Source: Candidatus Multivoraceae bacterium (GTDB lineage Bacteria; Acidobacteriota; Thermoanaerobaculia; Multivoradales; Multivoraceae). From it: 64,000 nucleotides of DNA. This document shows, in pieces, positions 9,558-45,772 of the stretch. Below the pieces are notes generated by a model. That model searched no databases. It was not told the origin of the DNA and saw nothing but the letters and a program-made list of their open reading frames with translations. Both the position numbers and the translations under genes were made by a program. The DNA is taken from positions 2,413,803 to 2,477,802 of the forward strand of contig CBDCWR010000007.1 of assembly GCA_965223385.1 (NCBI GenBank), read 5' to 3'. Position 1 is the first letter of the stretch; every line of letters starts with the position of its first letter.

Positions 9558-9799
9558 TGTCGGCTCCTGGTGCCTGCGGAGGCCGTCAGTTCGCCTCGAC
9601 CGGAGCTCGAAGGGGAGCTCGCTCGCGGCAGAATCTCTCCGCTCTGGCTATATCCGCACTGGCTATAGATGTACGAGGCATCGGGCCGCGGGTTGCAGGG
9701 GCGACCCCGCCAAGGGATCGCCCGCGATCTCGCTTAGGATCGCTGGATCCGAACCGCCTCGGTCTGCGCGTCCGCGACCGACCTCGAAGAGGGAACCCC

Positions 9800-12700
9800 A
9801 TGCCGACCATCCTCCCGGGCTCCGGCCCCGCGCTGCGTGTGCTCGCAGCAACGCTGCTCCTCCTCGTCCTCTTGCCACGGGACCTGACCGGTCAGCAGGG
9901 CCGGAAGGGCTACTACCGACAGCCGGCCCTCTGGGGCGACACGGTGGTCTTCGCCGCGGAGGGTGACCTGTGGGTCGCGACCACGGCCGGAGGCGTTGCC
10001 GAGCGACTGACGGCCCACGCCGGCGCCGAGAGCCACCCCGCGATCTCACCCGACGGCCGACAGGTGGCGTTCACCGCGGCCTACGACGGCCCACCCGACG
10101 TCTACGTGATGCCGCTCGCCGGCGGTCGTCCGCAGCGGCTGACCTGGGACAACGATCCGTCCACCGTGGTCGGCTGGACTCCCCAGGGAGAAGTGCTCTA
10201 CACGTCGCCGCGCTACTCGACCCTGCCCGGTCCGGAGCTCCTGGCGATCGCGCCGGAGAGTGGGGCGTGGCGTCGCATTCCGCTGGCACAGGCGAGCGAC
10301 GGTAGCTTCTCGGACGACGGTCGGACGCTGGTGTTCGCGCGCCCCGGCTTTCACCGCAACAACACCCGGCGGTACGAAGGCGGCACCGCCCGCAACCTCT
10401 GGCGCTTCACGGACGGCGACGCCGAGGCGGTCAACGTCACTCCGGACCACGCGGGAGAAGACCACTCGCCGATGGTGTCGGCCGGAACCCTCACCTGGGT
10501 GAACGACGCGAGCGGCATGATGAACCTCTGGTCGATGCCCCTCGAAGGGGGCGCCAAGACCCAGCTCACCGACCACGAAGAGTGGGACGTGAAGTCGCCG
10601 GCGCAGGACGCCTCCCGCCGCACCCAGCGCATCGTGTACCGCCTCGGCGCAGACCTCCGCCTGTTCGACCCCGCCACGGGAGACGACCGCGAGATCGACC
10701 TCTTCCTCCGCTCCGACTTCGACCAGCTCGCCGAACGCTGGGAGGACACGCCCGGGCGTCAGATCACCGCCATGGCGTTGGACCACACCGGAGAGCGGGT
10801 GGCGCTCACGTCGCGCGGGCGCGTCTTCGTCTTCCCGGCGAAGCACGGGCGTCGCCTCCAGGTGGACCGTCAGCCGGGAGTGCGCTACCGCAGCGCCACC
10901 TTCCTCGACGAGGATCACATCCTGCTCGCCTCGGACGCCACCCGCGAGGTGGAGTTCGTGGCCGTGCCGGCCAACGGCATCGGTGAGCGCCGGCAGATCA
11001 CGCGCGGCGCGACCACGCTGCGCTTCGCCGGCATTCCGTCTCCCGACGGCTCCCGGATCGCGTTCACCGACAAGAACAACGACCTGCGCATCGCCGTTGT
11101 CGAGACCGGCGACGAGCGCGTCGTCTCGCAGAATCGCGAGGGTGTGCAGAGCTTCGAGTGGTCGCCCGACGGCAAGTTCCTCGCGTACTCGGGCGCGGCG
11201 CTCAACACGTTCGTCCAGATCTTCCTCTACGAGCTGGCGACGGGCGACCAGATCCAGGTGACGAGCGACCGCGTCAACTCGTACTCGCCGTCGTGGTCGC
11301 CCGACGGCAGGTGGCTCTACTTCCTCTCCGACCGCAACCTGCGGTCGCTCGTGGGCAGCCCGTGGGGCCCGCGCCAGCCGGAGCCGTACTTCGACCACGC
11401 CATCGAGATCTACCAGGTGGGCCTCGAGGAGGACGCGCGCCCGACCTTCTGGTCCGACGACGAGCTCGTGCGCGAGGCGAAGAAGGCGGAAGCCGAGGCC
11501 AAGAAGGAGGCGGCCGATGGGGCGGAGGAATCGGAAGGGAAGAGCGAGAGCCAGGGCAAAGGCGACGAGAAAGACGAGGTGAAGGTCACCGTCGACCGCC
11601 ACGGCCTCGAGAGCCGCGTGTGGAAGCTGCCCGTCGACTCGGGCAACTACTTCGGGTTGAGCGCCGTGCACGATGCCCTGCTGTACTTCTCGCGCGACAG
11701 CGGCCCCGACGCGGAGATGCACCTCGTGGGCCTCTCGACGAAGCCGGACTCGAAGCCCGTGACGATGGTGTCCGACGTGCGCGGGTTTCAGATCTCAGGC
11801 GATCGCAAGAAGGCGCTCGTGCGCAAGGGCCAGGCCCTGCACGTGGTGGACGCGGCGCCCCGCAAGGCCGATCTCGGTGAGACGAAGGTCGATCTGTCGG
11901 GCTGGCGCTTCCCGGTGTCGCTCGCGGAAGACTACGAGCAGATTTTCGTGGACGCGTGGCGTCTCGAGCGCGACTACTTCTACGACCCCGGCATGCACGG
12001 TCTCGACTGGGAGGCCGTGCTCGAGAAGTACCAGGCGCTGCTGGAGCGGGTGACCACGCGCGACGAGCTGTCCGACCTCATCGGCGAGGTGGTCGCCGAG
12101 CTCGCGGCGCTCCACGTCAGCGTGCGCGGCGGGGAGCACCGCGAAGCGGAGGACGACATCAACGTGGCGAACCTCGGTGCGCGGCTGCGACGCAGCGAGG
12201 GTGATGGCGGCTACGTGATCGAGCACCTCTACCGCACCGACCCCGACTATCCCGAGTGGCGCGGCCCTCTCGCCGATCCGTACCACCGCGTGGACAATGG
12301 CGACGTTCTGGTGGCGCTCAACGGCACTTCGCTGCTGAGCGTGCGTGCGCCGGGTGAGCTGCTGCGCAACGAGGCCGGCCAGCAGGTGCGGCTCACCCTG
12401 CGCGACGCGGGCGAGAAGGAGACCCGCGACATCTTGGTGCGACCGCAGGCGCGCGAGTCGAGTCTGCGTTACCACGACTGGCAGTACAGCCGCCGGCTCG
12501 AGGTGGAGGAGCGTGGCGAGGGTCGGATCGGCTACGTGCACCTCCGCGCCATGGGCAGCAGCAACCTCTCCGAGTGGTACCGCAACTTCTACCCGGTCTT
12601 CGACCGCCAAGGTCTGATCATCGACGCGCGTCACAACCGCGGCGGCAACATCGACAGCATCATCCTCGAGAAGCTGCTGCGCCGGGCGTGGTTCTACTGG

Positions 12701-27873: not shown

Positions 27874-29568
27874 ATGAGTGCGAACCGCAGGGCCCTGACG
27901 ATCTTCCAGATCACGCCTTCGATCGACGGTGCCGACGTGTCGAGCTTCGACCAGGTCGTGCAGGCCTCCGCTCTCACCGACCCTCAGCTGCAGACGACGG
28001 AGCTCCCGGCGGGCTTCGACTTCGACGGCCGGCTGTATGTGATCGCCCCGGCCCCCGAGGAGCCGCGCTGGGGGGCGTTCCTGCGCGAGGGTTTCGGCGA
28101 CACGTTCAACCTGTCCGCCACGGCGACCAACCGCGCACTGCTCGTGATCCGTTTTCGCTACTACAACGCCGACCGCTACTTCGCGGTTGCGTTCGGCGCG
28201 GGCCGCCACCTGATGCGTCGTGACGCCTACGTGCGCTCGTTCGGGCTGAAGGCGGCGCTCAACCTGATTTACGAAGACGACGTCCTCGACGGCAGCGCGT
28301 CGAGCGATCGCGTGCGCCAGGTCGATTCGCGGACCGTCGCGGGTAACACGTTCCGGACGCGGCGCCAGGCGAACCGCGACACCACCTTCGAGCAGTTCGG
28401 CTTGGACACCGAGCGCGATCTGCTGAGCACGGTCACCGGGGAGCCGAGTGATCGGACCGAGCTGGGCTCCCGCGTCTTTGGTGCCGATCACGTCGGCGTC
28501 AATCTGCCGATCGACTTCTCCGGCCTCGTCGGCCTCTGCAAGAGGCTCTGGCGGGCGGGGCGTGCCGACGACTACGAGACGCACTTCAGCTGGATCGACA
28601 ACCTGTCGGCGATCGCGGAGCCCGCGCGCCTCGAGGCGCTGCGCTCCGCGGTGGTGCAGCAGCTGCGCGATGGTGCCGTGGGCGCCTTCGAACTGGCACC
28701 ACCGGAACTGGTCGACTTCGACGCGATCGAGACCTTCCGGATCGAGGTCGGCGCCAACGACGTCTCGGTGGCCGACCTCACTCTCAGCGCGTACCTCGCA
28801 CTGTTCGACGCTGGCGGACTCGCGGCGCTCACCTGGGACCGCATGAAGTCGCACCGTGTCGCCGCGCTGTCGGCCCAAGGTGAGCTCCTCCACAGGTGGC
28901 CCGTCTCCGACTGCCTGTTCGGCGAGCTGGACGACGACGGCGAGACCGTGCTGCTCGACGCGGCCGAGTTCTTCGCCGTCGCCGCCGACTTTCTGGCCGA
29001 CCTCGACGCGTTCGTCGCGGCGATCCCGGAGTCCGACGTCGACCTTCCCGACTCACGCATCGACGCGAACGGCCGGGAGATCAGCGAGGGGGTCTACAAC
29101 GTGGAGGCAGCGCAACACCTTCCCACGCATCTGCTGCTCGACAAGCGCACCGTCAGGGTGGCACCCAACACGAGCTCGATCGAGATCTGTGACGTGCTCA
29201 CGACGGACCGCAAGTTCGTGCACGTGAAGCGCAAGCTGGGCTCCGCGTCGCTGAGCCATCTCTTCTCGCAGGGCTACGTGTCGGGCGACCTGTTCGTGAC
29301 CAGCCACGAGTACCGCACGGCCGTTGCCGCCGAGATTGCAGCTGCCGAGGCAGACAAGGGCTCCGGGCCGATCTTCACGAACGCGCTCGACTTCCAGGCC
29401 CCCGACCCGGCTGCGATCGAAGTGGTCTACGCGGTGGTGGCCAACTGGAACGGCGACAGCGTGGTCGACCGCCTGCCGTTCTTCTCGAAGGTCAACCTGC
29501 GCCGCCACGCCACCGACCTGAGACGCCTCGGCTACGAGGTGACGTTCAAGCGCATCGACATTGCGTGA
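27874..29568 (+). CDS. DUF6119 / TIGR04141-like sporadically distributed protein (function unknown)
   Basis: ATG at 27874 has a GGGAGGTG RBS. The 564-aa product has a C-terminal region KFVHVKRKLGSASLSHLFSQGYVSGDLF that resembles, from memory, the TIGR04141 family. It abuts the left end of the low-GC island. Family assignment is tentative. Confidence 0.55.
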   Translation: MSANRRALTIFQITPSIDGADVSSFDQVVQASALTDPQLQTTELPAGFDFDGRLYVIAPAPEEPRWGAFLREGFGDTFNLSATATNRALLVIRFRYYNADRYFAVAFGAGRHLMRRDAYVRSFGLKAALNLIYEDDVLDGSASSDRVRQVDSRTVAGNTFRTRRQANRDTTFEQFGLDTERDLLSTVTGEPSDRTELGSRVFGADHVGVNLPIDFSGLVGLCKRLWRAGRADDYETHFSWIDNLSAIAEPARLEALRSAVVQQLRDGAVGAFELAPPELVDFDAIETFRIEVGANDVSVADLTLSAYLALFDAGGLAALTWDRMKSHRVAALSAQGELLHRWPVSDCLFGELDDDGETVLLDAAEFFAVAADFLADLDAFVAAIPESDVDLPDSRIDANGREISEGVYNVEAAQHLPTHLLLDKRTVRVAPNTSSIEICDVLTTDRKFVHVKRKLGSASLSHLFSQGYVSGDLFVTSHEYRTAVAAEIAAAEADKGSGPIFTNALDFQAPDPAAIEVVYAVVANWNGDSVVDRLPFFSKVNLRRHATDLRRLGYEVTFKRIDIA

Positions 29569-30038: not shown

Positions 30039-31229
30039 TTGGCCATGGACCTTCTACGAACAGGGCTCCTTCTCTCCTTGGCTTTTGCCGCAGCGAGTGC
30101 CGCAAGAGCTGCAGATCTCGCTGATGTCCGCGCCTGTGATCAGGATGGCAGTGGCCTGGTCGAGGAGGACGAGCTGCGCTTCTGCCTTTTGAGCGTTCTC
30201 GAGCCCGAGGCCGCGGACCTCGATACGAACAAAGATGGAGCGATCTCTGCGAAAGAAGCTCGGGTCTACTGGGAGCCCGATCTGCTCGACCTAAGAGAGC
30301 GCTACGGTCCGCCACCGTACACGGTGAAACAGCTAGCTGACTTCTTCCCTCTCGAGGGCGAGTTGTCGCTTGGCGGAGTCTTGATCCGGAGGAGCTATCA
30401 GCAGGTCACGCTCAGTGAGCCGGCGAAGTCCTTCAAGAAGGCCGAAGGGGCGCTGTTCTCTTTCTCGGACGACCAGGCCAACGACGTGGAGTCGTGGCAG
30501 GCAAAGGGTGCCGTTATCGGCGTGCTCAAACTTCGTGAGAAGTCAGACAAGGCGCTCACAGCGATTGGTTTCGTTCCAAGCCTAGAGTTCGAAAGGAACG
30601 GAGTAGATGGCCCGGACGAAACGCAGGCCGCCGGTGACTCAGGAGAGAGTCCGGATCCTCCTGAGGACGCTCAAGAGGAAGTCGACCGACTCGTTCTCCG
30701 GGCAGGCTTCGACTTCGAGGTCATCGGGAAAGGCCCGGGTCTGCAGAACTTTCGCATCTTTGTGGCGCACGCGACGGACTTCGACTTCGATAGCGGAGTC
30801 AACGCGATTCAGCTGCAGTGGGAACCCACTCACAACCAGTGGGGGCTTGGGGTGTTCCGACCGGTTGGAGGGATCAGACTGGACTACCGCCTGCGCTTTC
30901 TCGTTCACGCTGAGCTTGGGGAGATTGGTGAGGCTGGCGAGAAGCTGGCGTTGGAGGAAGACGACACGTTTTCCCGATTGGGACCGGAGGTCCAACTCGA
31001 GCTTCAGCCGAGTGGCTTCAGAAGGCTCACGCTGAAAGCCCAGTGGAGAAACTTCTATCGCGTGGGCGGGGACGGCCCAGACCACGTCGAGATGTTCATC
31101 GCCGGTGCCGCTCTCTCACTTGACCGAGACGGCCACTTCTCCCTTGAAGCGGAGTACCAGAACGGGAGGGCCGAGTTGACCCTCGAGGACACAGACCTGC
31201 GAAAGGTCGGTCTGGCGATCAAGTTCTGA
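30039..31229 (+). CDS. Secreted EF-hand calcium-binding protein (two canonical EF loops) with a large uncharacterised C-terminal domain
   Basis: Signal peptide (MAMDLLRTGLLLSLAFAAASAARA), then DQDGSGLVEEDE and DTNKDGAISAKE, both perfect 12-residue EF-hand loops. The roughly 300-aa C-terminal domain is unknown. TTG at 30039 or ATG at 30045. Confidence 0.65.
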   Translation: MAMDLLRTGLLLSLAFAAASAARAADLADVRACDQDGSGLVEEDELRFCLLSVLEPEAADLDTNKDGAISAKEARVYWEPDLLDLRERYGPPPYTVKQLADFFPLEGELSLGGVLIRRSYQQVTLSEPAKSFKKAEGALFSFSDDQANDVESWQAKGAVIGVLKLREKSDKALTAIGFVPSLEFERNGVDGPDETQAAGDSGESPDPPEDAQEEVDRLVLRAGFDFEVIGKGPGLQNFRIFVAHATDFDFDSGVNAIQLQWEPTHNQWGLGVFRPVGGIRLDYRLRFLVHAELGEIGEAGEKLALEEDDTFSRLGPEVQLELQPSGFRRLTLKAQWRNFYRVGGDGPDHVEMFIAGAALSLDRDGHFSLEAEYQNGRAELTLEDTDLRKVGLAIKF

Positions 31230-31660: not shown

Positions 31661-31710
31661 TGGAGCCGATGAGCGGACTTGAACCGCTGACCTGCTGATT
31701 ACGAATCAGT
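31661..31710 (-). other. tRNA-Thr(CGU)-derived 3' half (anticodon arm to CCA), probable integrase att-core remnant, not a functional tRNA
   Basis: The minus strand reads CTGATTCGTAATCAG-CAGGTC-AGCGGTTCAAGTCCGCT-CATCGGCT-CCA, with a UUCGUAA anticodon loop, T-arm, acceptor 3' strand and CCA. No matching 5' acceptor or D-arm follows. A P4-type int N-terminus starts 125 bp away. Confidence 0.55.
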
Positions 31711-31835
31711 GATCGTCTGTTTGTGGGCCTTTGCGCGTGTTTGCGAACCCGCGTTGCTGCTGAATTCTAGGGGAAGCATGGGGTGTGCTCTATGTCGCGG
31801 TTTGCGTGTCGTGGATGGTACAGTGATGGTACGGT

Positions 31836-32231
31836 ATGCGAGGGAGAATCACCAAGAAGGCTGTCGATGGATTGGCTCCGCGAATGGGTGCCGATGGTGC
31901 CCTTCGTGCTGAGCGGTTGTGGGATACGGATGTCACTGGCTTTGGGTGCCTGGTGACGAAGTCCGGGCACAAGAGCTACATCTTTCAGTACCGAACGCGG
32001 CAGCAGGCAAGCAGGACGCCCAAGCGGCTGACGATTGGGGCGCATGGCGAGCTCACCCCGGATGAAGCGCGCACCATTGCTCGAGAACTCCTGTTCAAGG
32101 TCCGCTCCGGAGAGGATCCGGCTCTTGAGTGGAGAAGGGTCAAAGGTGAGACGTTCGGAGACCTCGCGGATCACTTCATGCGCACGTACCTGCCGGCGAA
32201 GAAGCGGCCTCCGAGGGCATCCACCAGAAGT
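31836..32231 (+). pseudogene. P4-type tyrosine integrase, N-terminal (DUF4102 arm-binding) fragment truncated by IS insertion
   Basis: ITKKAVDGLAPRMGADGALRAERLWDTDVTGFGCLVTKSGHKSYIFQYR...GELTPDEARTIARELLFKVRSGEDP is a typical arm-DNA-binding domain. The ORF reads through into the IS terminal repeat at about 32231. No catalytic domain lies downstream. Confidence 0.65.
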
Positions 32232-32260
32232 GAATCGCTCCGAGTTTCCCGGAGACCTTT

Positions 32261-33495
<1,235 letters not shown>

Positions 33496-33649
33496 GACTC
33501 CGATTCTCCCAAGGAATGGAGTCTCCGGGATTCCCGGTGCGGTTCAGTAGTGATTCTGCGCCATCTCGATACCAACGTTGAGCGCATGCTTGGGAGAGTG
33601 CCGCGACACAGAGAGCTGCGTGAGTTAATCAGGACTTTCATCGAGACTG

Positions 33650-34105
33650 GTGGCGCACCTCTCGGTTGATCACCCGGCCGGGGAGGACTTCGTGAGTCTG
33701 AAAGTAGTTGAGCCGTCCGAGAATCTCCATCGCGCTGTGGCTAATGTCACAAGGAGACTCAACGAAATGGGCTACGAGGGTCCAACGCCACGCGACGCGA
33801 CTGGAGTGGTCATCGTTGGGCGCGAGGTTGTCGGTGCGTTTTGTCTCAGCGACTTCACGGCCCCGCCGGGCGCGACGAGACTGAAGTGGATGGGCTCCAC
33901 AGAAACGGCAGAACGGAACAAACTCAGGGTTGGTACCTTCATCGTCCGGCACGCCGTGGCCGAAGCTAGAGCTGATGGGTTCGAAGAGATCCTCCTCTCG
34001 GTACGAGGGACCAACGAGCGCGCCATTCGCCTATACACGAGGGAGGGCTTCCGCCTCACCGGGAAAGGCAACGAGCAAGAGCTGGAAATGCGCCGTACGC
34101 TCTAG
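33650..34105 (+). CDS. GNAT-family N-acetyltransferase
   Basis: A 151-aa product with GTNERAIRLYTREGFRLTG (GNAT motif A/B region). GTG start. Confidence 0.65.
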   Translation: MAHLSVDHPAGEDFVSLKVVEPSENLHRAVANVTRRLNEMGYEGPTPRDATGVVIVGREVVGAFCLSDFTAPPGATRLKWMGSTETAERNKLRVGTFIVRHAVAEARADGFEEILLSVRGTNERAIRLYTREGFRLTGKGNEQELEMRRTL

Positions 34106-34173: not shown

Positions 34174-35898
34174 CTAGAGGTTCCCGAGCACGGTAGCCAT
34201 GGCTCGTTTCTCGGCCTCCTGCTGCTCGAATTCGCCGGAGTGCTGCATGATCGCCGCTCGCTCTTCGAACTCCTCTCGAAGGTCCGGAGACAGCTGATCG
34301 CCTAGCTGGCGAGCCGACAGAGGGTCGGGCGCCTCGAGTTGCAGCGGTGGGCGATCGGTCTCCCTAGATATCTCTTGTCCCCTAGTAGTACCTAGGGACT
34401 CCGAATGGTCGCAAGGGTCGCAAGAACCCTGACGAGAGCGGGGTTCTGAGCCGTTCAAGGTCGCAAGGTCTTGCGGGTTGGCGGTGTTGGCCAAGTCGCA
34501 AGGTCGCAAGGAGCTATACGTGCATGGGGAGGATTGGGGGTCGAGGCCGCGTTCGTGAGCAACTCGGAGAACGGCAGCAATCGAGCGGCGCTTCAGGCTA
34601 GCGTTGTTGTGCCAGACGGACTCTGAAGGAATCCCTAGCCGCTTGAGGGTAGTTCCAAGCTTCGCAATGCTGATAGGCCTGCCTTCCTTGTAGTTGCCCC
34701 AGCGCTCGGGGGCTTCGCCGATCATGTGCTGCTGCAGCTCTTTGGTACTGAAGGAGTCGCTCGGGTGTGCCTCCGCGAAAGAAAGGGCCGCCTCGAGAAT
34801 CTCCGTCTCGACGCTCTTGATTGGGCCTTGGCTTCGCTCCTGTAGCCAGCTGAGGAATGGGTGTCGTTCGCCAACAGCATCAGTCCTTTGCCGTAGCTCC
34901 TTGGCCAGCACCGTCATGGCGTTTCGTCCACCCGGTAGGTCCGTGAGTTTCTCGAGGTGCGGCCCAAGACCGTGAAATGGCCTGTTCCGCACGTACTCGG
35001 CAGCCCATTCGCCAAACGGCCTCCGAATCAAGTGGATCGCCTCCTCGAGTTGCTCTTGGGTGGGTGAGCGTTCTTCGACGAGGTCGGCCAGGTCCTCTCC
35101 GCCGCTACGGGCAGCAAAGAACTCGACAACGAGGACCGATTGCGCGACGTCCTCTAGAACTCGACCAGCGCCGAGAGCGTAGTCTCGCCCCACTCGATCG
35201 GCGTCAGGCCAGATCAGAACCCGGCTCGCTCCATCGAACGACGCTAGATGACGCTCATCGAGGTCTGTGCCGTTCGGAGCAGTTGTGGCGTTGAGCCCCA
35301 GTTTGACGGCAGCATCTGCCACTTTGCAGCCTTCCACCAAGTGAACATCTTCCCGGCGCTCAACTGCTCGACGTATCCGCTCTTCGCGATAGAGCTTGGG
35401 AGACAGATCGTCTAGCGCTGCGCGCCATTTGGGGCCGTCCTGACGCTGCCACATGAACCTCTTCTTGCCGCTCTCCAGGTCGTAGCGGAGAAGCCGTAGT
35501 GCTGGTCCTTCAATGGAGTCAAAGGCGTACTCGGTGACCCTAGCGTACGAGGTTGATGGCGGTGTGAGACCGTAGCAGGAGGCGAGGGCCACGATCGCAG
35601 CGAACCGTTCCTTTCCTACGGGTTCAACCCCGTAGCCAGCAGCAAGCTCAAGCCAGGTCCCTCCAGGCCGGTCGGGCAGAACGAGCGGCCCTAGCTTTCC
35701 GGGCTTGTAGATGATCCGGTCGGCGTGACGATGAAGGCGCCAGGGCTGATTGGGTGGAAGCTTGGTCGCTTGCCACTTGCCGTCCTTCCGGCGCTTCCAG
35801 CCGAGGTCCATGCCGATCACGCCAGCGATCGCGTTTGGATCTCGACCGATCGCCGGAAGTACGAACTGGTCGTAGAAGCTACCTGCTGAGGTGAGCAT
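34174..35898 (-). CDS. Primase-like replication protein with Toprim domain (integrative-element/satellite-type)
   Basis: About 574 aa from MLTSAGSFYD. SRVLIWPDADRVGRDYALGAG is a Toprim DxD motif. It sits in an int-alpA-primase arrangement. The in-frame ORF extends to 35985. Confidence 0.6.
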   Translation of the reverse strand: MLTSAGSFYDQFVLPAIGRDPNAIAGVIGMDLGWKRRKDGKWQATKLPPNQPWRLHRHADRIIYKPGKLGPLVLPDRPGGTWLELAAGYGVEPVGKERFAAIVALASCYGLTPPSTSYARVTEYAFDSIEGPALRLLRYDLESGKKRFMWQRQDGPKWRAALDDLSPKLYREERIRRAVERREDVHLVEGCKVADAAVKLGLNATTAPNGTDLDERHLASFDGASRVLIWPDADRVGRDYALGAGRVLEDVAQSVLVVEFFAARSGGEDLADLVEERSPTQEQLEEAIHLIRRPFGEWAAEYVRNRPFHGLGPHLEKLTDLPGGRNAMTVLAKELRQRTDAVGERHPFLSWLQERSQGPIKSVETEILEAALSFAEAHPSDSFSTKELQQHMIGEAPERWGNYKEGRPISIAKLGTTLKRLGIPSESVWHNNASLKRRSIAAVLRVAHERGLDPQSSPCTYSSLRPCDLANTANPQDLATLNGSEPRSRQGSCDPCDHSESLGTTRGQEISRETDRPPLQLEAPDPLSARQLGDQLSPDLREEFEERAAIMQHSGEFEQQEAEKRAMATVLGNL

Positions 35899-36130
35899 CG
35901 TCGTCGTGCCTCGCGACCGTCTCGGGCTCGTCGATGGCTGGCAGCGACTCGAGGTATTCCTCGATCTCGCGTCGAAGCCAGGCACTTACTCTTGGGCCGA
36001 GTCTTCTAGGAGCGGGGAAGGTGCCGTTCTTGACCCATCGATAGAGAGTTGGGACAGAGACGCCGAGAAGTTTGGCTGCCGCGGAGGGCCTCAACATCAA
36101 CGAGAGGTCTGCGGAATCGTGAGTCATCAA
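35879..36130 (-). CDS. AlpA-family phage regulatory protein / excisionase (HTH)
   Basis: MLRPSAAAKLLGVSVPTLYRWVKNGTFPAPRRLGPRVSAWLRREIEEYL has the AlpA/Xis MerR-like HTH signature. The likely true start is the internal Met at 36097. Confidence 0.7.
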   Translation of the reverse strand: MMTHDSADLSLMLRPSAAAKLLGVSVPTLYRWVKNGTFPAPRRLGPRVSAWLRREIEEYLESLPAIDEPETVARHDDDAHLSR

Positions 36131-36421: not shown

Positions 36422-37636
36422 CTAGGCTCCTTGGCTGAACGGGACCACAGACGCAAGCCCTGAGCCGCTAGCGATACCCCTGACGCGCTCGCCCCAAAGC
36501 TCGAGGGCCGCCCTCTTCTCGTCGTCGTAGGCGTGACGGTTGTAGATGGCAGTTATCGAATGGTCCGCGTGATTGAGGATGCGGCTGATGATCGGTGGCT
36601 CGACGCCAAGCCGAGCCATGTGCGTGGCCGCGGTCCGTCGAAAGTCATGGGGTGTCCAGTCACGTGTGCCACTTCGCTGGCGTAGACGGCTAGTCGCTCG
36701 AGTGAGACGGCCGATAGGGCGACCAGGGTTTACGGGACTCTCGAACACGAACTCGTTGTGGCCTGTCGTGTCCTCCAGTCGGAGGATCGACTCCATGGCT
36801 AGCTCCGACAATGGAACGCGGCTCGCTCTAGCACTCTTCGTGTCAGCCGCGGGAATTGTCCACCAGGCGCCCTCGATGTCTACCCATCGCATCGTCCGGA
36901 CCTCACCAGGCCGTTGGGCGGTGAGGAGCAGGACGCGGTACATCGCCGCGGTGACGGGCTGCTCGTCGTTGAGGGCGCTCCAGACAGCTTCGATCTCCTC
37001 CTCGGAAAGTCGGCGCTCCTTTGGAGTCTCCTTCGCTGGCCTGTCCACCAGCAAGGCGGGGTTCGTGTCCGCGTAGCCTCGCTGTAGGCCGAAGTTGAAC
37101 ATCTTCGAGATGAGCGCTCGAAGCCGATTTGCCGCTACGGGTGCTCTCTTGGCCTTCTCATCGAGGAGGCGAGCGACCTCGACTCGCCCGATTTCGGCCA
37201 CGGGGATGCCTGACCACGCAGGCAGTAAGTCGGACCGGAGATAGCGTTCGTCTTCGCGCCAGGACGATTCGCGCTTTTCTCTGCGGGCGTAGTTGTCGAG
37301 GTAGTCGGAGGCAAGAGCCTCGAAGGTGCGGCCAGCGGCAAGCGCAGCGGCGCGCTGAGCGCTCTTCTGCTCCGCTACGGGGTCGAGGCCATCGGCGACG
37401 TCCTGGCGGAGCCTGCGGGCCCGTTTGCGAGCGTCTGAGAGGCTCAGGTCAGGGTAGTTGCCGAGCTTCTTGCGACGCTGCCCGCCATCAGGTCGTCGGA
37501 AACGGAGCATGAACGCCTTGGAGCCGTCGCAATTGACTCGGAGGACCAGGCCTGGAACTTCGCCGTCTCGGATCTCATAGCGCCGTGTTCGAGGCAGGAG
37601 GGATCGAATAGTCCTGTCCTGGAGGATTGTGGCCAT
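36422..37636 (-). CDS. Tyrosine-type site-specific integrase (P4-like, DUF4102 N-terminus), apparently intact
   Basis: Starts at MATILQDRTIRSLLPRTRRYEIRDGEVPGLVLRV. The catalytic region has HDFRRTAATHMARLG...ILNHADHSITAIYNRH (R..H..R..Y). The in-frame ORF extends to 37810. Confidence 0.85.
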   Translation of the reverse strand: MATILQDRTIRSLLPRTRRYEIRDGEVPGLVLRVNCDGSKAFMLRFRRPDGGQRRKKLGNYPDLSLSDARKRARRLRQDVADGLDPVAEQKSAQRAAALAAGRTFEALASDYLDNYARREKRESSWREDERYLRSDLLPAWSGIPVAEIGRVEVARLLDEKAKRAPVAANRLRALISKMFNFGLQRGYADTNPALLVDRPAKETPKERRLSEEEIEAVWSALNDEQPVTAAMYRVLLLTAQRPGEVRTMRWVDIEGAWWTIPAADTKSARASRVPLSELAMESILRLEDTTGHNEFVFESPVNPGRPIGRLTRATSRLRQRSGTRDWTPHDFRRTAATHMARLGVEPPIISRILNHADHSITAIYNRHAYDDEKRAALELWGERVRGIASGSGLASVVPFSQGA

Positions 37637-37820
37637 GTTTGCGAATGCCTCCTCCGCGACTCGGGACACGTGGGGGACGCGCCGACATCGCGATTTGGTG
37701 AGGCAGCATGCTACATCATGGAGTCTCTTGAGACCAGCTGTAACCCATACAAAATGTATTGTTTGGGCGCCATGACTCAGTTTGAACCCTTCCGTGCGGG
37801 ACTCGTTCAAGAGAGCGGGA

Positions 37821-37871
37821 CACTGACTGAAAATCAGGGTGTCGGTGGTTCAAATCCGCCTCTGGGCACCA
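37821..37871 (+). other. tRNA-Phe(GAA)-like 3' half (anticodon arm to CCA), att-core remnant, not an intact tRNA
   Basis: ACTGA-CTGAAAA-TCAGG GTGTC GGTGG-TTCAAAT-CCGCC TCTGGGC-A-CCA is canonical tRNA-Phe from the anticodon loop onward. No 5' acceptor (GCCCAGA) or D-arm lies upstream. It is 185 bp from the int start codon. Confidence 0.5.
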
Positions 37872-37980
37872 GCAACTCAAGGGTTTCGAGCGACCGAAAA
37901 CACGCTGCGTCTCGTAGGTCACCGATAGGTCACCTCGACGCGTCGTTTGAGAGCCGGGGGCAGACGAGAAGGGGAGGGAC

Positions 37981-39123
37981 GTGAACGCTGAGCGACTGCA
38001 TGCGTTGGCTCTGGTGCTGAGGGAACACCTGAAAGAGCTGAACCTGCCCGCCTCACTGGCTGCACTCGAGTCCGAACTAAGTACGCTGGTCTCAAGTCCC
38101 TCCGACGAGACTGCGCAGCTTCAGGTAAGTCTGAAGCGGAACGAGCTGATCGCCGGCTTGGAGTCTTCGCTTCGGGACGAAGGTCCCTTGTTTGCCGATG
38201 GCATTCAAGAGCTTGGAGTGGATGGCCTGGTAGGACCAGGACTTGCCGGTGCGCTTCGTAGCGCGCTTGCGGGCGAGGATCTCACTCCAGCGGCGGCACA
38301 GGCGGGGGTTGAGCGGCTGCGTTCAGAGGTCGCAATGCTCGAAGGGCACCTCAAGAGCTTGGTAAATGCTCTTGAGAGTTTCCATGTTGGCCACGAGTTG
38401 CTCGGCCCTGGGGAAGCTGAACTCGCCGTCGTAATCCCACGGTCAGCCGTGAAGAACGAGGTGGGAGAGCTCGCAGATGATCTCGAGGGGCTGGACAAGA
38501 TCTTCGGCTGCCTGGCTGAGGTTGCGACTGGCCAGAGGGCCGACCTCAAGATCCGGACGATCTCCTCGTCCGATCTCACCTTCCTCCTGGAGGTGCTTCC
38601 GGAGGTTGGTGCGGCTATTGCCTTCTCGGTGCGGTGGCTGGTGCAGACGTACAAGGACGTCTTGGAGATCAAGAAGAACCGCCAAGATCTGGCGAACAAG
38701 GAGATCCCTCAGGAGGTGCTGGACGACCTCGATGCGCACATTCAGGAGCGGGTCGATGCTGCGATAGCGGATGGCGTTGAGGAACTGTTCAAGGAATTCG
38801 ACAAGCGCCGGCCGGCGGGCAGAAAGGAAGAGCTAAGGAACGAGCTCCGACGCTGGCTCGGAGAGCTGATGAAGCGCATCGACCACGGCTACCATGTCGA
38901 AGTTCGAGCTGCGCCGAGAGAGGACGGAGAGGAGGAAGAGGAGAGGGACGAGTCCGCTGAACACCTCGAGAAGATCTCCGAGCTAGCGGCTCAGACCCCC
39001 TACGTCGCCATCGCTGGGAGGCCCGTTCTCTATCTGCCGGGACCCGACGATCAAGAGGACGCTGATGGCGCCGCGGACGAAAGTCCAGACGAGCCCGACG
39101 AGAGCGAAGATTCCGAACCCTAG
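37981..39123 (+). CDS. Hypothetical protein (380 aa, predicted alpha-helical, acidic C-terminal tail), orphan island cargo
   Basis: GTG start with a GGGGAGGG RBS. No recognisable motif. The C-terminus is DEPDESEDSEP. Its stop TAG is the first triplet of a 36-bp direct repeat. Confidence 0.6.
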   Translation: MNAERLHALALVLREHLKELNLPASLAALESELSTLVSSPSDETAQLQVSLKRNELIAGLESSLRDEGPLFADGIQELGVDGLVGPGLAGALRSALAGEDLTPAAAQAGVERLRSEVAMLEGHLKSLVNALESFHVGHELLGPGEAELAVVIPRSAVKNEVGELADDLEGLDKIFGCLAEVATGQRADLKIRTISSSDLTFLLEVLPEVGAAIAFSVRWLVQTYKDVLEIKKNRQDLANKEIPQEVLDDLDAHIQERVDAAIADGVEELFKEFDKRRPAGRKEELRNELRRWLGELMKRIDHGYHVEVRAAPREDGEEEEERDESAEHLEKISELAAQTPYVAIAGRPVLYLPGPDDQEDADGAADESPDEPDESEDSEP

Positions 39124-39156
39124 ACACCGCCCGCACGATCGGCCCAAGCGACCGGG
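39121..39156. repeat. 36-bp direct repeat, copy 1 (TAGACACCGCCCGCACGATCGGCCCAAGCGACCGGG)
   Basis: 35/36 identical to copy 2 at 40427..40462. It starts at the stop codon of gene 37981..39123. Confidence 0.6.
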
Positions 39157-39448
39157 CACGTAGCTAGGCGGCATCCTCTTCTGCGAGCGAAGCCCAGAAG
39201 AAGCCTCGCGGCGCGCGCTTGATCTTGGCCAGCACCTCGACCGCGTCCCCGAGGGCCTGCTACTCGTCCGGGGTCGCGATCGCGACCCTCTGGCCGTGGC
39301 GCGGCGCCCTCGGCGACTCCGCCATGCGTTGCATCGCAGGACGACGGTGAGCGCTAGCATTGGGCTACGCAAGCGCGGCGAAAGCCGCGGCTGCTCGGGG
39401 CGCAGGCGCTTGGCCGGGGGCCAGACGAGATAAGGAGGAACCCAAACG

Positions 39449-40363
39449 ATGGTCAGTAGCCGACGACTGGCCGTGACCGTACTGATCGTCGTGACGCTGG
39501 GCCAGCCCAGTGCCGGCTGGTCCAGCGAGGCTGCGTTTCCAACGGGAAGCCGAGGAGCTTGGACGCGGAACAGCGGCGAAGAGCGTCTGAACGTCACCGA
39601 GTCTCACATTGTCCACCACCACAACGGCCTGCTCAAAGTCCGGAAGCTGCTCAGCATCGACCGGCTGCAGGCCAAGCTCCGATTCAACGGTACCGAGTCT
39701 TGGGTTGCCTTCTATGTCCAAGATGAGCATCTGTACTTCGCGGATCGGAGCTTCGAGAGAGTGTCGCCGATACCTGACGATCTCCAAGTCCTTACTCCAT
39801 TCCAAATCCCTCAGCCGTCCGCCGCTGCCGCCAGCGACATCGAGGCCGCACAGGGGCTTCTGAGGCTCATGATCCGGAATGACCAACGGCTCCGAAAGGA
39901 GCGGCGTCCGCCAGACGAGCTGCGGCGCGCAGGCAAGAGGCATGCCGAAAAACTAAAAGGGATCCTAAGAAACCAGGGCTGGATCGACATCCACAGATTC
40001 GGCCCTGAGGCAGCGATGAACGCGTTTCTGGTCGTTCAGCACAGCAATGACCTGCCGCTGATGCTCTCCGCACTGCCGCTGATCAAGAGTGATCTCGAGA
40101 ATCTCGGAGGTCGAGAGGCAGGGGACATGTTTGCGCTGCTCTTCGATCGCATAAGAGTGCGAACAGGCGAGCTTCAACGCTACGGCAGTCAGCTCAACGA
40201 AGACGCCACAGGTCCATACGTTCTCCCCTTAGAAGATCCGTGCAGCATTGACGACCTTCGCCAAGCTATCGGCCTTGAGCCTCTGCAGGAATACGTAGCG
40301 ATCGCATCGAAGGAGTTCTATGCAGGACGCCCAGTGCGCCTTCTCACCCCCTGCGAGCATTAG
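39449..40363 (+). CDS. Hypothetical secreted protein (304 aa), orphan island cargo
   Basis: A perfect AAGGAGG RBS lies 9 nt upstream of the ATG. Signal peptide-like MVSSRRLAVTVLIVVTLGQPSAG. No recognisable catalytic motif. The gene is bracketed by the 36-bp direct repeats. Confidence 0.6.
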   Translation: MVSSRRLAVTVLIVVTLGQPSAGWSSEAAFPTGSRGAWTRNSGEERLNVTESHIVHHHNGLLKVRKLLSIDRLQAKLRFNGTESWVAFYVQDEHLYFADRSFERVSPIPDDLQVLTPFQIPQPSAAAASDIEAAQGLLRLMIRNDQRLRKERRPPDELRRAGKRHAEKLKGILRNQGWIDIHRFGPEAAMNAFLVVQHSNDLPLMLSALPLIKSDLENLGGREAGDMFALLFDRIRVRTGELQRYGSQLNEDATGPYVLPLEDPCSIDDLRQAIGLEPLQEYVAIASKEFYAGRPVRLLTPCEH

Positions 40364-40426
40364 CTCTGGAGAATACTCGGTGGCCACCTAGATCGCCCCT
40401 TATCGGCGAGCCTCCAAGACCGCCTG

Positions 40427-40462
40427 TAGACACCGCCCGCACCATCGGCCCAAGCGACCGGG
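40427..40462. repeat. 36-bp direct repeat, copy 2 (TAGACACCGCCCGCACCATCGGCCCAAGCGACCGGG)
   Basis: One mismatch to copy 1. It lies immediately upstream of the ATG at 40469. Confidence 0.6.
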
Positions 40463-40468
40463 GGTGCG

Positions 40469-41083
40469 ATGGCGGCTCACAACTCGAGGTTCCGGGTGCA
40501 GTCCTACACGGGCGACTCGGAGTGGCTCCAGCCGGTGGAGGTTTTCCTCTTCCGCGGCTACCAGAAGGTGGGGCAGACGCGGCACCTCGGCCCGAATCGC
40601 TACTGCCCGACCACCCTGGCCACGCTCCAGACGAACGCGGACCGGCTCTTCCTCTCGCCTGAGACGCGCACGCTGGCAGCCTCTGAAGGCTGCCCGAGCT
40701 CGCCTCTGCTCCTCTGGGTCGAGAGCGCCTTTGACTCAGCTCTGAGCGGCTTCAGCGGCGCTGTGGTGCCTCTTCTCGAGCAGGGCGTGGGCGACGACGA
40801 CCCGAGGCTTGCGCTGGCGCTCAGGAACGTGTCAGGGCGCCTGAAGACAGCCTCCGAGGAGGAGAAGCAGGCCGTCATGGACTGGCTTGAGGACTCAGGC
40901 ATGCGCGAGCAGGTGCCCGAGACGTTGAAGACCTCCCCGAGGTGCTTTTGGGCGTCGCTGGCGGTGGCCGAAGAGGCCGCCACTAGAGAGCGCTACCCCG
41001 TCGCCTCGGGATCCCAGTCGCGAGCCCAGCCACCATTTCGGATCTCCTTGGCTAGTTCGAGGATCTCCGGGTGCTTTGCGTAG
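40469..41083 (+). CDS. Hypothetical protein (204 aa), uncertain
   Basis: ATG follows a GGGGG stretch. The central part is protein-like (EEEKQAVMDWLEDSGMREQVPETLK). The 3' 90 nt overlap the convergent TPR gene, so the true end is uncertain. Confidence 0.35.
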   Translation: MAAHNSRFRVQSYTGDSEWLQPVEVFLFRGYQKVGQTRHLGPNRYCPTTLATLQTNADRLFLSPETRTLAASEGCPSSPLLLWVESAFDSALSGFSGAVVPLLEQGVGDDDPRLALALRNVSGRLKTASEEEKQAVMDWLEDSGMREQVPETLKTSPRCFWASLAVAEEAATRERYPVASGSQSRAQPPFRISLASSRISGCFA

Positions 41084-41511
41084 GGGCAAGGTGGATCCAA
41101 GCTCGCAAGCGCACGCTCCGGCTGGTTTAGCTCAGCGAGAACCCGGGCGCGTCCGAAGTGCGCTTCGTGGTCACCTCCCAGGTCGACGGCACGCTCGAAG
41201 TAGCTGAGCGCCAGCTCCAGCTGCTCGTCCCAGACGTCGTACCAGTACCCGAGCTCGTTGTGTGGCTCGGGGTCGTCGGGCGCAATTTCGAGAGCACGCT
41301 CGTAGCTTTGACGCGCATCCTCCAGTTCCCGACGAGGGTCATCGTCCCCCAACAGGATCAGATGGCCACGCAGGAGCCAGAGCTCCATGGACCTCGGGAA
41401 GGCGTCCAGCGCCTGATCCGCTACCGCAACCAGGGCACCTGGGACGTCTCCCTCTTCAGGTATCTGCTGGCGGATCCGCTCCAACCAGGCTTCCTCGGAT
41501 ACTGGAGCCAC
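40993..41511 (-). CDS. TPR-repeat protein
   Basis: A 172-aa product with TPR-like helical repeats (ARQSYERALEIAPDDPEPHNELGYWY, ALSYFERAVDLGGDHEAHFGRARVL). Confidence 0.55.
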   Translation of the reverse strand: MAPVSEEAWLERIRQQIPEEGDVPGALVAVADQALDAFPRSMELWLLRGHLILLGDDDPRRELEDARQSYERALEIAPDDPEPHNELGYWYDVWDEQLELALSYFERAVDLGGDHEAHFGRARVLAELNQPERALASLDPPCPYAKHPEILELAKEIRNGGWARDWDPEATG

Positions 41512-43756: not shown

Positions 43757-44197
43757 TCAGGTCGCCGGCTCGCCCTCTTCCACCTGGGCGCGGGCTCGAT
43801 GTACGGTCACCACGTTACGGCCCGCCTCGCGTCGGTAGTCGATCGAGTCGACCCACTGCCGCACGAGGTGAACGCCGAGGCCGCCGGGCCGACGCTCTTC
43901 CACGGGTGCGTCGAGCTCGGTCGGTGGTTCGAGGCAGAGCGGGTCGAAGGCCTCCGCGCCGTCCGAGACCACGAGACCCCACCGGACCTCGTCCAGCATG
44001 AAGGTCACCTCGATCTCGTCGCGATCACTCAAGCCGCCGTGCCGGATCACGTTCGACACGAGCTCGTCGAGAACCAGCTCCATGGCGAAGCGGTCCTGGG
44101 CCACGAGGCCCTGCTCGGCGCAGAGCCGGTCGAGCGTGGCCTCGAATCGGCCGAGAACCGGTGGAGCCGCCGGAACGGTCACGCGGAAGCTGTCCAT
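43757..44197 (-). CDS. Anti-sigma regulatory factor, RsbW-like Ser/Thr kinase (HATPase_c)
   Basis: A 146-aa product with ELVSNVIRHG...RRPGGLGVHLVRQWVDSIDY, GHKL-ATPase motifs typical of RsbW/SpoIIAB. Confidence 0.75.
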   Translation of the reverse strand: MDSFRVTVPAAPPVLGRFEATLDRLCAEQGLVAQDRFAMELVLDELVSNVIRHGGLSDRDEIEVTFMLDEVRWGLVVSDGAEAFDPLCLEPPTELDAPVEERRPGGLGVHLVRQWVDSIDYRREAGRNVVTVHRARAQVEEGEPAT

Positions 44198-44207
44198 CGG
44201 ACCGAGA

Positions 44208-44564
44208 CTAACGGGAGGCGATCGCGCGAAGCGCTTCCTCGGCCCGCTGGCACTCCGACTGGATGTCGAGGATCCTGGTGAAGCCCGAGACGTTCAGCAC
44301 GTCCAGCACGCCGCCCTGGGGCCCGAAGAAGGCCACGTTGCCTCCCTCGAGGCGCGCTCTCTTGACCAGCCACAGAAACACACGCAGGCCGGCGCTGCTC
44401 AGGAACTCCAGGCCCGAGAGGTCGAGCGCCATCACGTTGTGCCCCTGGCGCAGCAGTGCTTCCAGCTCGGTCTCCGCCCGCTTCGACGTGTCGGTGTCGA
44501 GACGTCCTCCGAGCTCGAGCACCAGCCCTTCTTCGGCCTGGAGTGTGTTCATCTTCAATGACAT
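44208..44564 (-). CDS. STAS-domain anti-sigma-factor antagonist
   Basis: A 118-aa product from MSLKMN, with DLSGLEFLSSAGLRVFL, the SpoIIAA/RsbV motif with the phosphorylatable Ser. The rest of the 316-aa ORF is spurious. Confidence 0.75.
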   Translation of the reverse strand: MSLKMNTLQAEEGLVLELGGRLDTDTSKRAETELEALLRQGHNVMALDLSGLEFLSSAGLRVFLWLVKRARLEGGNVAFFGPQGGVLDVLNVSGFTRILDIQSECQRAEEALRAIASR

Positions 44565-45772
44565 GGCAGCTCCTCTCGATCTTCGTGACGGTCTTTCCTT
44601 GCGAGCCGTTCCACGGCCATGAGGGTGATGTCGTCCGACTGCGGCACGCCGCTCGAGTGGCGGTCGACCGCCTCGGAGATGTGATCGATCACCTCGCGGA
44701 CGTTGCGCGCCGGCTCGCCGAGCGTGGCGTGGAGACGATCCACGCCGAAGGCCTCTCCTGCCCCGTCGAAGGCCTCGCAGATGCCGTCGGTGACGAGGAC
44801 GAGGGAGTCGCCCACCTCCAGCTCGACCTCGCCGGTCTCGAACGTGAGCCCTGGGAGCATGCCCACGGCGGGCCCTGTCGTCTGCAGCTGGGCGCGGAGT
44901 GAACCGTCCCGTGCGCGCAGGAGGCCCGCATCCTGGCCGGCGTTCGCGTAGCGGAGGCGGTCGCTCTCCGGCTCGAGCAGGAGCATGAAGGCAGTCGCGA
45001 ACATCGACAGCTCGTCGTGGTGCACGGCGATGTAGTCGCTGGTGCGCCGGATCGCGTCGAAGGGATCGCTGCCGGTCTTGTGCGCTTCGTGGGCGAAGAG
45101 TCGGATCAGGCTGCGCGTGAGCGCCATGAAGAACGCGGCCCCGAACCCCTTGCCACACACGTCACCCATGACCAGAACCACCGACCCGTCGGAGAGAGCG
45201 AAGCTGTCGTAGAAGTCTCCTGCCACCTGCTTGGCGGGCCGGAAGAAGACCTCGCAGCGCCATCCGGGAGCTCCCCCGACGTCCTTCGGAAGGAACTGGC
45301 TCTGCATCCTGCGCGCCGCGTCGAGCTCACTGTCGACCGTCTGCGCATACCCCTCGAGAAGCTCGAGATGGTGCTTCTCGATACGTTGCATGCGGCGTCG
45401 CTCCAGCCCGTTCCTGACGCGGGCGAGGAGCAGCTCGGGATCAAGCGGCAGGCTGAGGACGTCTTCCGCACCGAGGTCGAGCGCCCGCACCAGAGCCGCC
45501 CGATCGGAGTGATCCGCCACCATCACGACGGGAACGTCGCGCGTTGCGGGCTCCCGCTTGAGCGCAGCCAGGGTCTCGCCCCCACCCCAGCCGATCGAAG
45601 GCAAGGCGAGGAGGACCAGGTCGGCCTCGGAGCTGGCGCACGCTTCGAGCGTCTGCTCGGCCGAGGTCACCTGCACGACCTCCCCGAAGGCCTCGGCGAG
45701 CGCCTCCAGCCCCTCGTTGGAGCTGGACAGGTCGGCTGCAACCAGAACCGACTCTCGTGTGCCAACGATCAT
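44555..45772 (-). CDS. Response-regulator receiver + PP2C (SpoIIE/RsbU-type) phosphatase
   Basis: A 405-aa product with an N-terminal REC (DLVLLALPSIGWGG, phospho-Asp region) and C-terminal PP2C motifs (GDFYDSF, LVMGDVCGKG, TDGICEAFD). Confidence 0.8.
   Translation of the reverse strand: MIVGTRESVLVAADLSSSNEGLEALAEAFGEVVQVTSAEQTLEACASSEADLVLLALPSIGWGGGETLAALKREPATRDVPVVMVADHSDRAALVRALDLGAEDVLSLPLDPELLLARVRNGLERRRMQRIEKHHLELLEGYAQTVDSELDAARRMQSQFLPKDVGGAPGWRCEVFFRPAKQVAGDFYDSFALSDGSVVLVMGDVCGKGFGAAFFMALTRSLIRLFAHEAHKTGSDPFDAIRRTSDYIAVHHDELSMFATAFMLLLEPESDRLRYANAGQDAGLLRARDGSLRAQLQTTGPAVGMLPGLTFETGEVELEVGDSLVLVTDGICEAFDGAGEAFGVDRLHATLGEPARNVREVIDHISEAVDRHSSGVPQSDDITLMAVERLARKDRHEDREELPCH

Follow-up and report, generated by a model that had tools for sequence, protein, structure and literature searches.

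The described systems closest to the locus considered here are the integron cassettes of unknown function (gcu), with the integrase-less attC clusters known as CALINs, the tRNA-linked P4-type islands with CIME-type tandem accretion of integrase-less islets at one att site, and single-gene defences of the abortive-infection (Abi) type, among them the integron-borne 'BRiC' cassettes. A recent preprint reports that integron cassettes hold defence genes (bioRxiv 10.1101/2024.07.02.601719). The locus occupies positions 37,981 to 41,511 of a 64-kb stretch (hereafter the window) of the 4.4-Mb chromosome of a Candidatus Multivoraceae bacterium, and searches for repeats, att sites and tRNA genes covered this window. 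It comprises four open reading frames (ORFs), designated A, B, C and D, to the right of an intact P4-type tyrosine integrase. The original prediction had placed these four ORFs at the coordinates at which all were recovered, and had proposed that they form a cargo operon of the integrase's island, possibly a defence module. The analysis described below indicates that A to D are probably a mosaic of independently acquired, functionally unrelated accessory genes rather than parts of one multi-gene system. Gene A belongs to an undescribed and uncatalogued family and is a self-contained mobile cassette gene, because it is a single gene without a conserved partner that is carried by integrons and by small tRNA-integrated elements.

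Co-occurrence of genes A to D and the repeats around gene B

The genomic sample of the A family consisted of 34 loci taken from genomes in more than 10 phyla, together with three metagenome contigs. When B, C, D, a further gene labelled E, the primase-like gene and AlpA were compared by tblastn with these 34 loci and three contigs, no match was obtained. An all-against-all BLAST of the ORFs lying within 5 kb of the A homologues likewise revealed no neighbour family common to the loci. Pfam analysis of the 101 neighbours located within two genes of an A homologue gave a heterogeneous set, rich in housekeeping proteins such as DnaK, GuaA, TGT, QueA and LpxK. A few of these neighbours are defence-like, although the number was compared with no matched background set: a type I methyltransferase (MTase), an OLD/GajA-like ATPase, a HEPN/RES protein and PDC-S45. 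Gene B was examined from the other side. A word search returned only two clusters of B homologues, and the nearest homologue (33% identity) lies among PadR, a MacB-type transporter, an S41 peptidase, an antibiotic biosynthesis-type (ABM) monooxygenase and an iron-containing alcohol dehydrogenase (Fe-ADH), an unrelated context (loci L007-L009).

The second line of evidence is a 36-nt direct repeat. The two copies bracket a 1306-bp unit that contains gene B alone, with sharp edges, and two matches of the repeat occurred in 0 of 100 shuffles. A third copy of the 36-mer was found neither in the window nor in the JGI metagenome contigs. Because the direct repeat brackets this 1.3-kb B unit, the arrangement suggests that B is a separate insertion of about that length. 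The spacer between A and B is 325 nt long, the leader of B 292 nt, and the spacer also contains an 18-nt perfect palindrome that could be a hairpin or an operator. Thus A to D do not behave as one module, because no B, C or D relative lies near any A homologue and because B is bracketed by the 36-nt repeat. The proposed same-strand operon held in so far as A to C share a strand, but the 325-nt gap, the palindrome and the bracketing of B speak against a single operon, and the absence of a conserved neighbour and the unrelated location of the B homologue tell against a single module.

The defence assignment fared no better. None of A to D matched a system HMM of PADLOC-DB v2.0.0 at E ≤ 0.1, candidate PDC families included, which agrees with the earlier observation that nothing here corresponds to a named defence system. 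The defence-like genes among the 101 neighbours of A homologues are few and the housekeeping genes many. The interval should therefore not be treated as a multi-gene defence system.

The possibility was considered that the 36-nt repeat is an integron recombination site. The attC criterion employed was an R''/L''...L'/R' imperfect palindrome with RYYYAAC and GTTRRRY boxes, located 3' of an ORF. The repeat has no RYYYAAC or GTTRRRY boxes and its folding z-scores were not significant, and it was rejected as an attC site. Three scans of the region from 37.7 to 41.5 kb found no attC-like sites.

The integrase element, the tRNA fragments and the composition of the locus

The coordinates of the genes, tRNA fragments and repeats are collected in Table 1.

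Table 1. Features of the A-D locus and of the adjoining integrase element (positions within the window)
Feature	Position	Strand	Description	Basis
Gene A	37981..39123	+	380 aa, GTG start, cytoplasmic	ORF listing, codon-position GC, homologue alignment
Gene B	39449..40363	+	304 aa, secreted, DUF6624	ORF listing, Pfam PF20329
ORF C	40469..41083	+	204 aa, ORFan	ORF listing, codon-position GC
Gene D	40993..41511	-	172 aa, small cytoplasmic TPR protein, convergent with A-C	Pfam, codon-position GC
36-nt direct repeat, copy 1	39121..39156		TAGACACCGCCCGCACGATCGGCCCAAGCGACCGGG; starts with the stop codon of A	
36-nt direct repeat, copy 2	40427..40462		35/36 identical; ends 6 nt 5' of the ORF C ATG	
18-nt perfect palindrome	39271..39288		core GGTCGCGATCGCGACC; in the A-B spacer	self reverse-complement match
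tRNA-Phe(GAA) 3' half	37825..37871	+	anticodon loop to CCA	read from sequence, aligned to tRNA-Phe of locus L029
P4-type tyrosine integrase, intact	36422..37636	-	Arm-DNA-bind_3 + Phage_int_M + Phage_integrase	
AlpA	35879-36130	-	left of integrase	
Toprim/DUF3631 primase-like gene	34174-35985	-	603 aa; left of integrase	
GNAT	33650-34105	+	left of integrase	
IS3-family element	32231-33546		orfA 33175-33495 and orfB 32261-33178, both -	
Second P4-type integrase, truncated	31836-32264	+	Arm-DNA-bind_3 N-terminus only; cut by IS3	
tRNA-Thr(CGT) 3' half	31661-31711	-	precedes the truncated integrase, points away from it	

The integrase, the tRNA-Phe 3' half and gene A follow one another in the order int (-), tRNA (+), A (+), so that the tRNA fragment parts A from the integrase. 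This 3' half is an att-type boundary, with the integrase element to its left and gene A to its right. Whichever half of the tRNA the element supplies, what follows the tRNA 3' end on the right is not the element's, and A to D therefore lie outside the integrase-bearing element as it is now bounded. The claim that they are cargo of the intact integrase's island was contradicted by this position of the tRNA-Phe fragment and by the failure to find a second att copy in the window. The 28-nt tRNA-Phe 3' end was single in the window when up to three mismatches were allowed, and a blastn-short comparison of 37810-37990 with the window gave only matches of 12 nt or less, with E ≥ 0.5. Neither tRNA half recurs within the 64 kb, nor was an intact tRNA-Phe or tRNA-Thr found there. 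The 5' half of the tRNA-Phe is absent or degenerate, the adjoining sequence not being tRNA. Neither 3' half was scored by Rfam, and the tRNA-Phe half was not called by ARAGORN; the identification comes from direct reading and one alignment.

The integrase probably starts at the ATG at 37636, although its frame is open to 37810. The tRNA-Thr half and the truncated integrase form a mirror image of the intact integrase and the tRNA-Phe half at 36.4-37.9 kb, and a tRNA 3' half that points outward closes each end of the 6.2-kb segment 31661-37871. The IS3-family insertion sequence between them ends in inverted repeats of 26 nt and contains an ALIL pseudoknot for programmed frameshifting at 33101-33217 (108 bits). 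The segment appears to represent two elements rearranged by IS3. To the right of A, family scans found no replication, toxin-antitoxin or recombinase genes. The Toprim/DUF3631 primase-like protein gave a weak PADLOC match to 'RTasDnaG-like (DRT)' (2e-6), which most likely reflects the common DnaG/Toprim core and not a role in defence.

The GC content of the tract, 0.59-0.66, compares with 0.68-0.72 (about 69%) in the flanking host DNA, and the low-GC tract reaches to about 42.3 kb. The lower GC content reported earlier was thus reproduced, and the description of the genes as accessory, compositionally foreign and orphan-like was borne out. Codon-position GC supported coding in A, B and D, in which GC1 is high and GC2 low (GC1/GC2/GC3 of.74/.39/.69,.67/.43/.68 and.78/.42/.72, respectively). 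ORF C (.62/.53/.85) has strong third-position periodicity, and its GC3 of 0.85 is more host-like than that of A or B; the GC3 values of ORF C and of the sulfatase gene are intermediate, nearer to the host. Read from the sequence, ribosome-binding sites of the GGAGG type precede A, B and D, as predicted, whereas the site 5' of C is weak and not strong as had been claimed.

The N-terminus of the gene B product reads as a plausible Sec signal peptide; the protein further comprises an N-domain rich in beta structure and, at residues 164-286, a DUF6624 domain that is helical. The match to Pfam DUF6624 (PF20329) has an E value of 2e-18 and 66.9 bits, against a gathering cut-off of 27, and the motifs VQHS-DLPLM, LFDRI and QR-GSQ are kept. 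The AlphaFold2 (AF2) model of B was too poor for a structure search (pLDDT 50). The terminal 91 nt of ORF C overlap the 3' end of the oppositely oriented gene D. The annotation of the source genome includes ORF C, but among 5.8 billion protein clusters it matched only itself; it is a lineage-specific orphan ORF. Gene D scored above the Pfam cut-offs for TPR_16, TPR_17, TPR_14, TPR_2, TPR_1, TPR_19 and TPR_11 and is a generic small TPR protein. With Pfam, NCBIfam, PHROGs and PADLOC, DUF6624 and TPR were the only families detected in A to D. The earlier statement that no motif could be recognised is therefore correct for A and C, but not for B and D.

Several other features of the window were recorded. 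A host partner-switching cluster at 43757-45772 (-) encodes a HATPase_c_2 anti-sigma kinase, a STAS-like ORF and a response-regulator-SpoIIE (PP2C) phosphatase; it is at host GC, so that the foreign tract ends there. At the left edge of the low-GC tract lies a gene for a DUF6119 protein of 564 aa (27874-29568, +, E 4e-123), and an EF-hand-like ORF of 396 aa (30039-31229) is found between it and the tRNA-Thr fragment. ARAGORN called a tRNA-Cys of 82 nt at 8640-8721, which fell below the Rfam gathering score in the whole-window scan and is probably a false positive. A tRNA-Thr call of 96 nt within ORF C (40607-40702) was rejected as a false positive, having no Rfam support even at E ≤ 1.

The gene A family

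A word-indexed search identified 14 clusters of A homologues. An exhaustive profile search enlarged the family to 2,381 clusters at 50% identity, and 1,141 of these reached E < 1e-30. The members are about 360-400 aa long (about 365 aa typically), carry no fused domain and have a single fixed architecture. One archaeal locus was obtained from a contig of a Nitrosopumilaceae metagenome-assembled genome (MAG); the contig measures only 4.4 kb, and its binning may be wrong. A homologues were not found in IMG/VR, among INPHARED phages or among PLSDB plasmids. The link to mobile elements that had been suggested for the whole interval holds for A: a tyrosine recombinase lies within 10 kb of the homologue in 10 of the 34 loci, the gene is an integron cassette in at least five, and direct repeats of tRNA fragments occur at several more.

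The integron loci are L010, L019, L034, L012 and L024. Since a relaxed attC scan had a background of 14%, only sites with canonical boxes were counted. The clearest description is available for L010, from a Tabrizicola MAG, which has at least four attC sites; those at 7857-7941, 9846-9933, 11120-11206 and 12323-12385 (GTCTAAC...GTTAGAT type) are canonical and closely similar and delimit single-ORF cassettes, the A homologue among them. A C-terminal intI remnant at 6730-6906 had TIGR02249 as its best NCBIfam match (5.5e-24) and shared 61% identity over 59 aa with an IntI1 query. The region 6730-12385 of L010 is a degenerate integron. Canonical attC sites are located directly 3' of A in L019 and L034, L012 has complementary GCATAAC/GTTATGC boxes and a bulged stem, and L024 has a multi-copy GCCTAAC...GTTAGGC array. 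In the integron loci, the attC begins within a few to about 40 nt of the A stop codon.

Small tRNA-integrated elements are the other recurrent setting. In L001, a 4.7-kb element (7779-12513) carries A, a G2P-type Rep, HigB, a possible antitoxin (an ORF without a family match) and an integrase, and is bounded by a 38-41-nt repeat of the tRNA-Arg(CCT) 5' half. The intact tRNA of L001 adjoins int, so that the element supplies the 5' part of the tRNA, an unusual polarity. A 10.3-kb tRNA-Met element in L028, which tRNA halves likewise delimit, combines A with a HEPN/RES-NTD1+RES protein. In Dyella jiangningensis (L023, CP007444), A lies in a 2.2-kb integrase-less islet with tRNA-Ser 3'-end repeats on either side, and in L020, L031 and L033 it is flanked by direct repeats of 80-109 nt. 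The tRNA-Ser hotspot of L023 (8472-13822) has a duplicated tRNA 5' region and three copies of the tRNA 3' end with its downstream sequence; there the A islet contains a DUF4823 ORF, and a gene for an OLD-family nuclease (AAA_15 + OLD-like TOPRIM) comes next.

The N-terminus MNAERLH was invariant in the first 14 family members, and M1, N2, E4 and L6 are each at least 90% conserved in 138 sequences. The GTG start at 37981 is correct because this N-terminus is conserved among homologues; the source-genome annotation (P0001, 262 aa) begins too late, at an internal Met. Constraint at the DNA level on the 5' end of A, as an att site or RNA element, was considered and discarded: the synonymous sites vary freely across 30 loci. 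An apparent fused domain in a 554-aa homologue, P0111, proved to be a spurious 182-aa N-terminal extension from a mis-called start, with VNAERLH internal to it.

The AF2 model of A (pLDDT 79, pTM 0.62) predicts a bundle of helices at the N-terminus (residues 1-133) and, over residues 140-310, an alpha/beta region in which long helices accompany a four-stranded sheet; a low-confidence, disordered linker then leads to a short C-terminal motif. This motif is conserved as G-x-P-[IV]-L-x-L-P (G346, L350, L352). The acidic tail noted earlier in this 380-aa helical protein is present, but it is lineage-specific and not conserved in the family. Among the residues invariant or at least 90% conserved in the 138 sequences are E147, P153, R154, E167, E180, S196, Y224, R281, E284, R299, D301 and R309, a pattern compatible with an active site or with a salt-bridge network.

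No described family or fold was matched by A. Pfam, NCBIfam, PHROGs and PADLOC assigned A to no family, and 120 members scanned singly against Pfam gave scattered noise only. The A profile matched PDB sequences at E ≥ 0.003, on a 40-residue helix. The Foldseek search that had been proposed as a check was carried out with the AF2 model and returned no fold match in PDB (E ≥ 0.18) or BFVD (E ≥ 0.06), and the family scans found no confident homology to housekeeping families. A literature search for the N-terminal motif returned nothing. The idea that A is itself a recombinase that moves its own repeat-flanked islets was set aside, as no recombinase fold was detected.

Weighing the explanations against known systems

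In the preferred reading, that of a mosaic, unrelated accessory DNA would have accreted on the downstream side of a tRNA-Phe hotspot for integration, directly beyond the present edge of the rearranged P4-type element. Gene A would have stood first in an older islet and outlived its decay; tandem accretion would have pushed this islet downstream when the integrase element integrated. Gene B would have arrived separately as a 1.3-kb insert bracketed by the 36-bp duplication, and the P4-type element, integrated later, would then have been broken by IS3. Several points weigh against this account. The GC content of A and B (0.59-0.61) equals that of the integrase element (0.60-0.62), which is compatible with co-acquisition. 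In its circular form, the L001 element has the order int/att/A that is seen in the window, and by analogy A could belong to an element of L001 design, as a tandem copy or an attP-like junction, and not to host DNA. The 36-nt repeat is present in two copies only, and no recombinase was identified for it. Co-occurrence was tested from the A and B sides; C has no homologues, and those of D were not searched. The test from the B side is the weaker, as it involves only two homologue clusters, although L007-L009 hold no A, C or D relative. Finally, the view is of 64 kb of a 4.4-Mb chromosome, and no relatives came up when metagenomes were scanned with the flanking SpoIIE regulator.

The view from which this work began, that A, B and C, perhaps with D, are the co-functional cargo operon of a novel anti-phage or competition system on the intact integrase's island, draws on the adjacency of the genes, on the common strand and ribosome-binding sites of A to C, on a GC content as low as that of the integrase element and on the failure to find housekeeping homology. 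The att fragment between int and A to D opposes it, as do the 325-nt A-B spacer and the repeat around B. B is moreover a Sec-secreted DUF6624 protein with a homologue that adjoins an S41 peptidase, an ABM monooxygenase and an Fe-ADH, C is an ORFan that overlaps D, and no PADLOC model matched any of the four. Since B, C and D were never found with A homologues in any of the 34 genome loci and three contigs, the cargo-operon view is largely refuted by lack of co-occurrence and must be considered extremely improbable. It is only slightly less improbable, and still very unlikely, that A and B are fossil cassettes of a decayed integron-like array, with the 36-nt repeat as the conserved body of the recombination site. 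Such an origin would fit the at least five other loci in which A is a true integron cassette with attC close to the stop codon, and the window repeat does begin at the A stop codon, bracket a single ORF and, in copy 1, permit a 51-nt imperfect hairpin closed by CCTAG/CTAGG. Against this, the RYYYAAC/GTTRRRY boxes are missing, the three scans gave no attC-like match near A to D, the fold z-scores were not significant, the identity of the repeats ends before any R'-like box, the window contains no intI and the leader of B extends over 292 nt.

Two other explanations carry somewhat more weight. It is possible, if doubtful, that A to D are what is left of another integrative element, or of a cis-mobilisable islet, placed in tandem to the integrase element and with A as its first gene at attL, as in L001. 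The int/att/A order of the circularised L001 element, the integrase-less, repeat-flanked A islets at tRNA-Ser in Dyella and the extension of the low-GC tract to about 42.3 kb are all in its favour; within the window, however, neither a second tRNA-Phe fragment nor any other direct repeat of att-region sequence occurs, genes for replication, toxin-antitoxin pairs and recombinases are missing to the right of A, and GC3 is intermediate, more host-like, in C and the sulfatase gene. Such remains could still be mobilised by the neighbouring integrase if a distal att survives. A shade more doubtful is the proposal that A alone is a single-gene anti-phage protein of the abortive-infection type or another conflict protein, with B, C and D as bystanders. 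A is solitary and autonomous, has been transferred across more than 10 phyla with a fixed architecture, is carried as an integron cassette, a class with defence genes, and takes the att-proximal 'moron' position in small elements. Its neighbours include conflict genes, namely the OLD nuclease in Dyella, the HEPN/RES-NTD1+RES protein in L028, HigB in L001 and a type I MTase, and its invariant charged residues suggest an active site. Yet no PADLOC model, candidate PDC families included, recognises A, defence genes are a minority among its immediate neighbours, no copy was found in IMG/VR, INPHARED or PLSDB, and no effector fold could be recognised in it.

As to function, single-gene autonomy and mobile contexts allow the tentative suggestion, held with well less than even confidence, that A is a stand-alone conflict or defence-type protein in which a sensor-like helical bundle is joined to an effector domain; the rest of the probability falls to other niche-adaptive or element-benefiting roles. 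The more specific proposition, that A founds a family without a known fold relative of stand-alone anti-phage or conflict effectors spread both by integrons, as a cassette, and by mini tRNA-integrating elements, as their att-proximal gene, is rather unlikely. If the effector reading is true, the MNAERLH N-terminus and the G-x-P-[IV]-L-x-L-P motif are functional handles. Whatever its role, A represents a sizeable family missing from Pfam that recurs as an integron cassette and for which no structural relative was found, and its fixed architecture and invariant residues make the family a clean experimental target. Single-gene cassettes of this kind are where new defence and stress functions now emerge. 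The locus also illustrates that accretion, IS3 disruption and a 36-bp duplication can mimic an operon beside an integrase.

The comparison with known systems is mixed for each of them. The A family resembles the gcu cassettes and CALINs in being a single ORF of about 1.1-1.3 kb with attC directly after it, as in the L010 array with its intI remnant, and in its sporadic distribution across phyla without a conserved partner. It differs in that A in the window has no attC or IntI and lies beside a tRNA fragment and a P4-type integrase, and in that the family also travels on tRNA-integrating elements. For gene B, all that is reported of the DUF6624 family is that it accompanies some graspetide clusters (PMC13097080). 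B is a DUF6624 protein by its match above the gathering score and its retained family motifs; unlike the graspetide-linked members, it has no such cluster in the window, and the family itself is of no known function. Abi-type single-gene defences and 'BRiC' cassettes are likewise stand-alone, mobile and cassette-borne, and A shares with them occasional defence or toxin neighbours, whereas it has no sequence or structure similarity to catalogued defence proteins and its enrichment in defence islands appears weak.

Compared with the tRNA-linked P4-type islands and CIME-type accretion, the window differs in having no intact tRNA or second att repeat, in the location of A to D outside a demonstrable element and in an unusual polarity, the tRNA 3' half pointing away from int. 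It is like them in the intact integrase, AlpA and primase-like gene beside a tRNA fragment, in the low-GC DNA on either side of that fragment, in its decay mediated by an insertion sequence and in the occurrence of A homologues in repeat-flanked islets at tRNA-Ser, tRNA-Arg and tRNA-Met. As a type, then, the locus is ordinary, an island accretion with orphan cargo, and B and D belong to described families; the A family is the part of it that had not been catalogued before.

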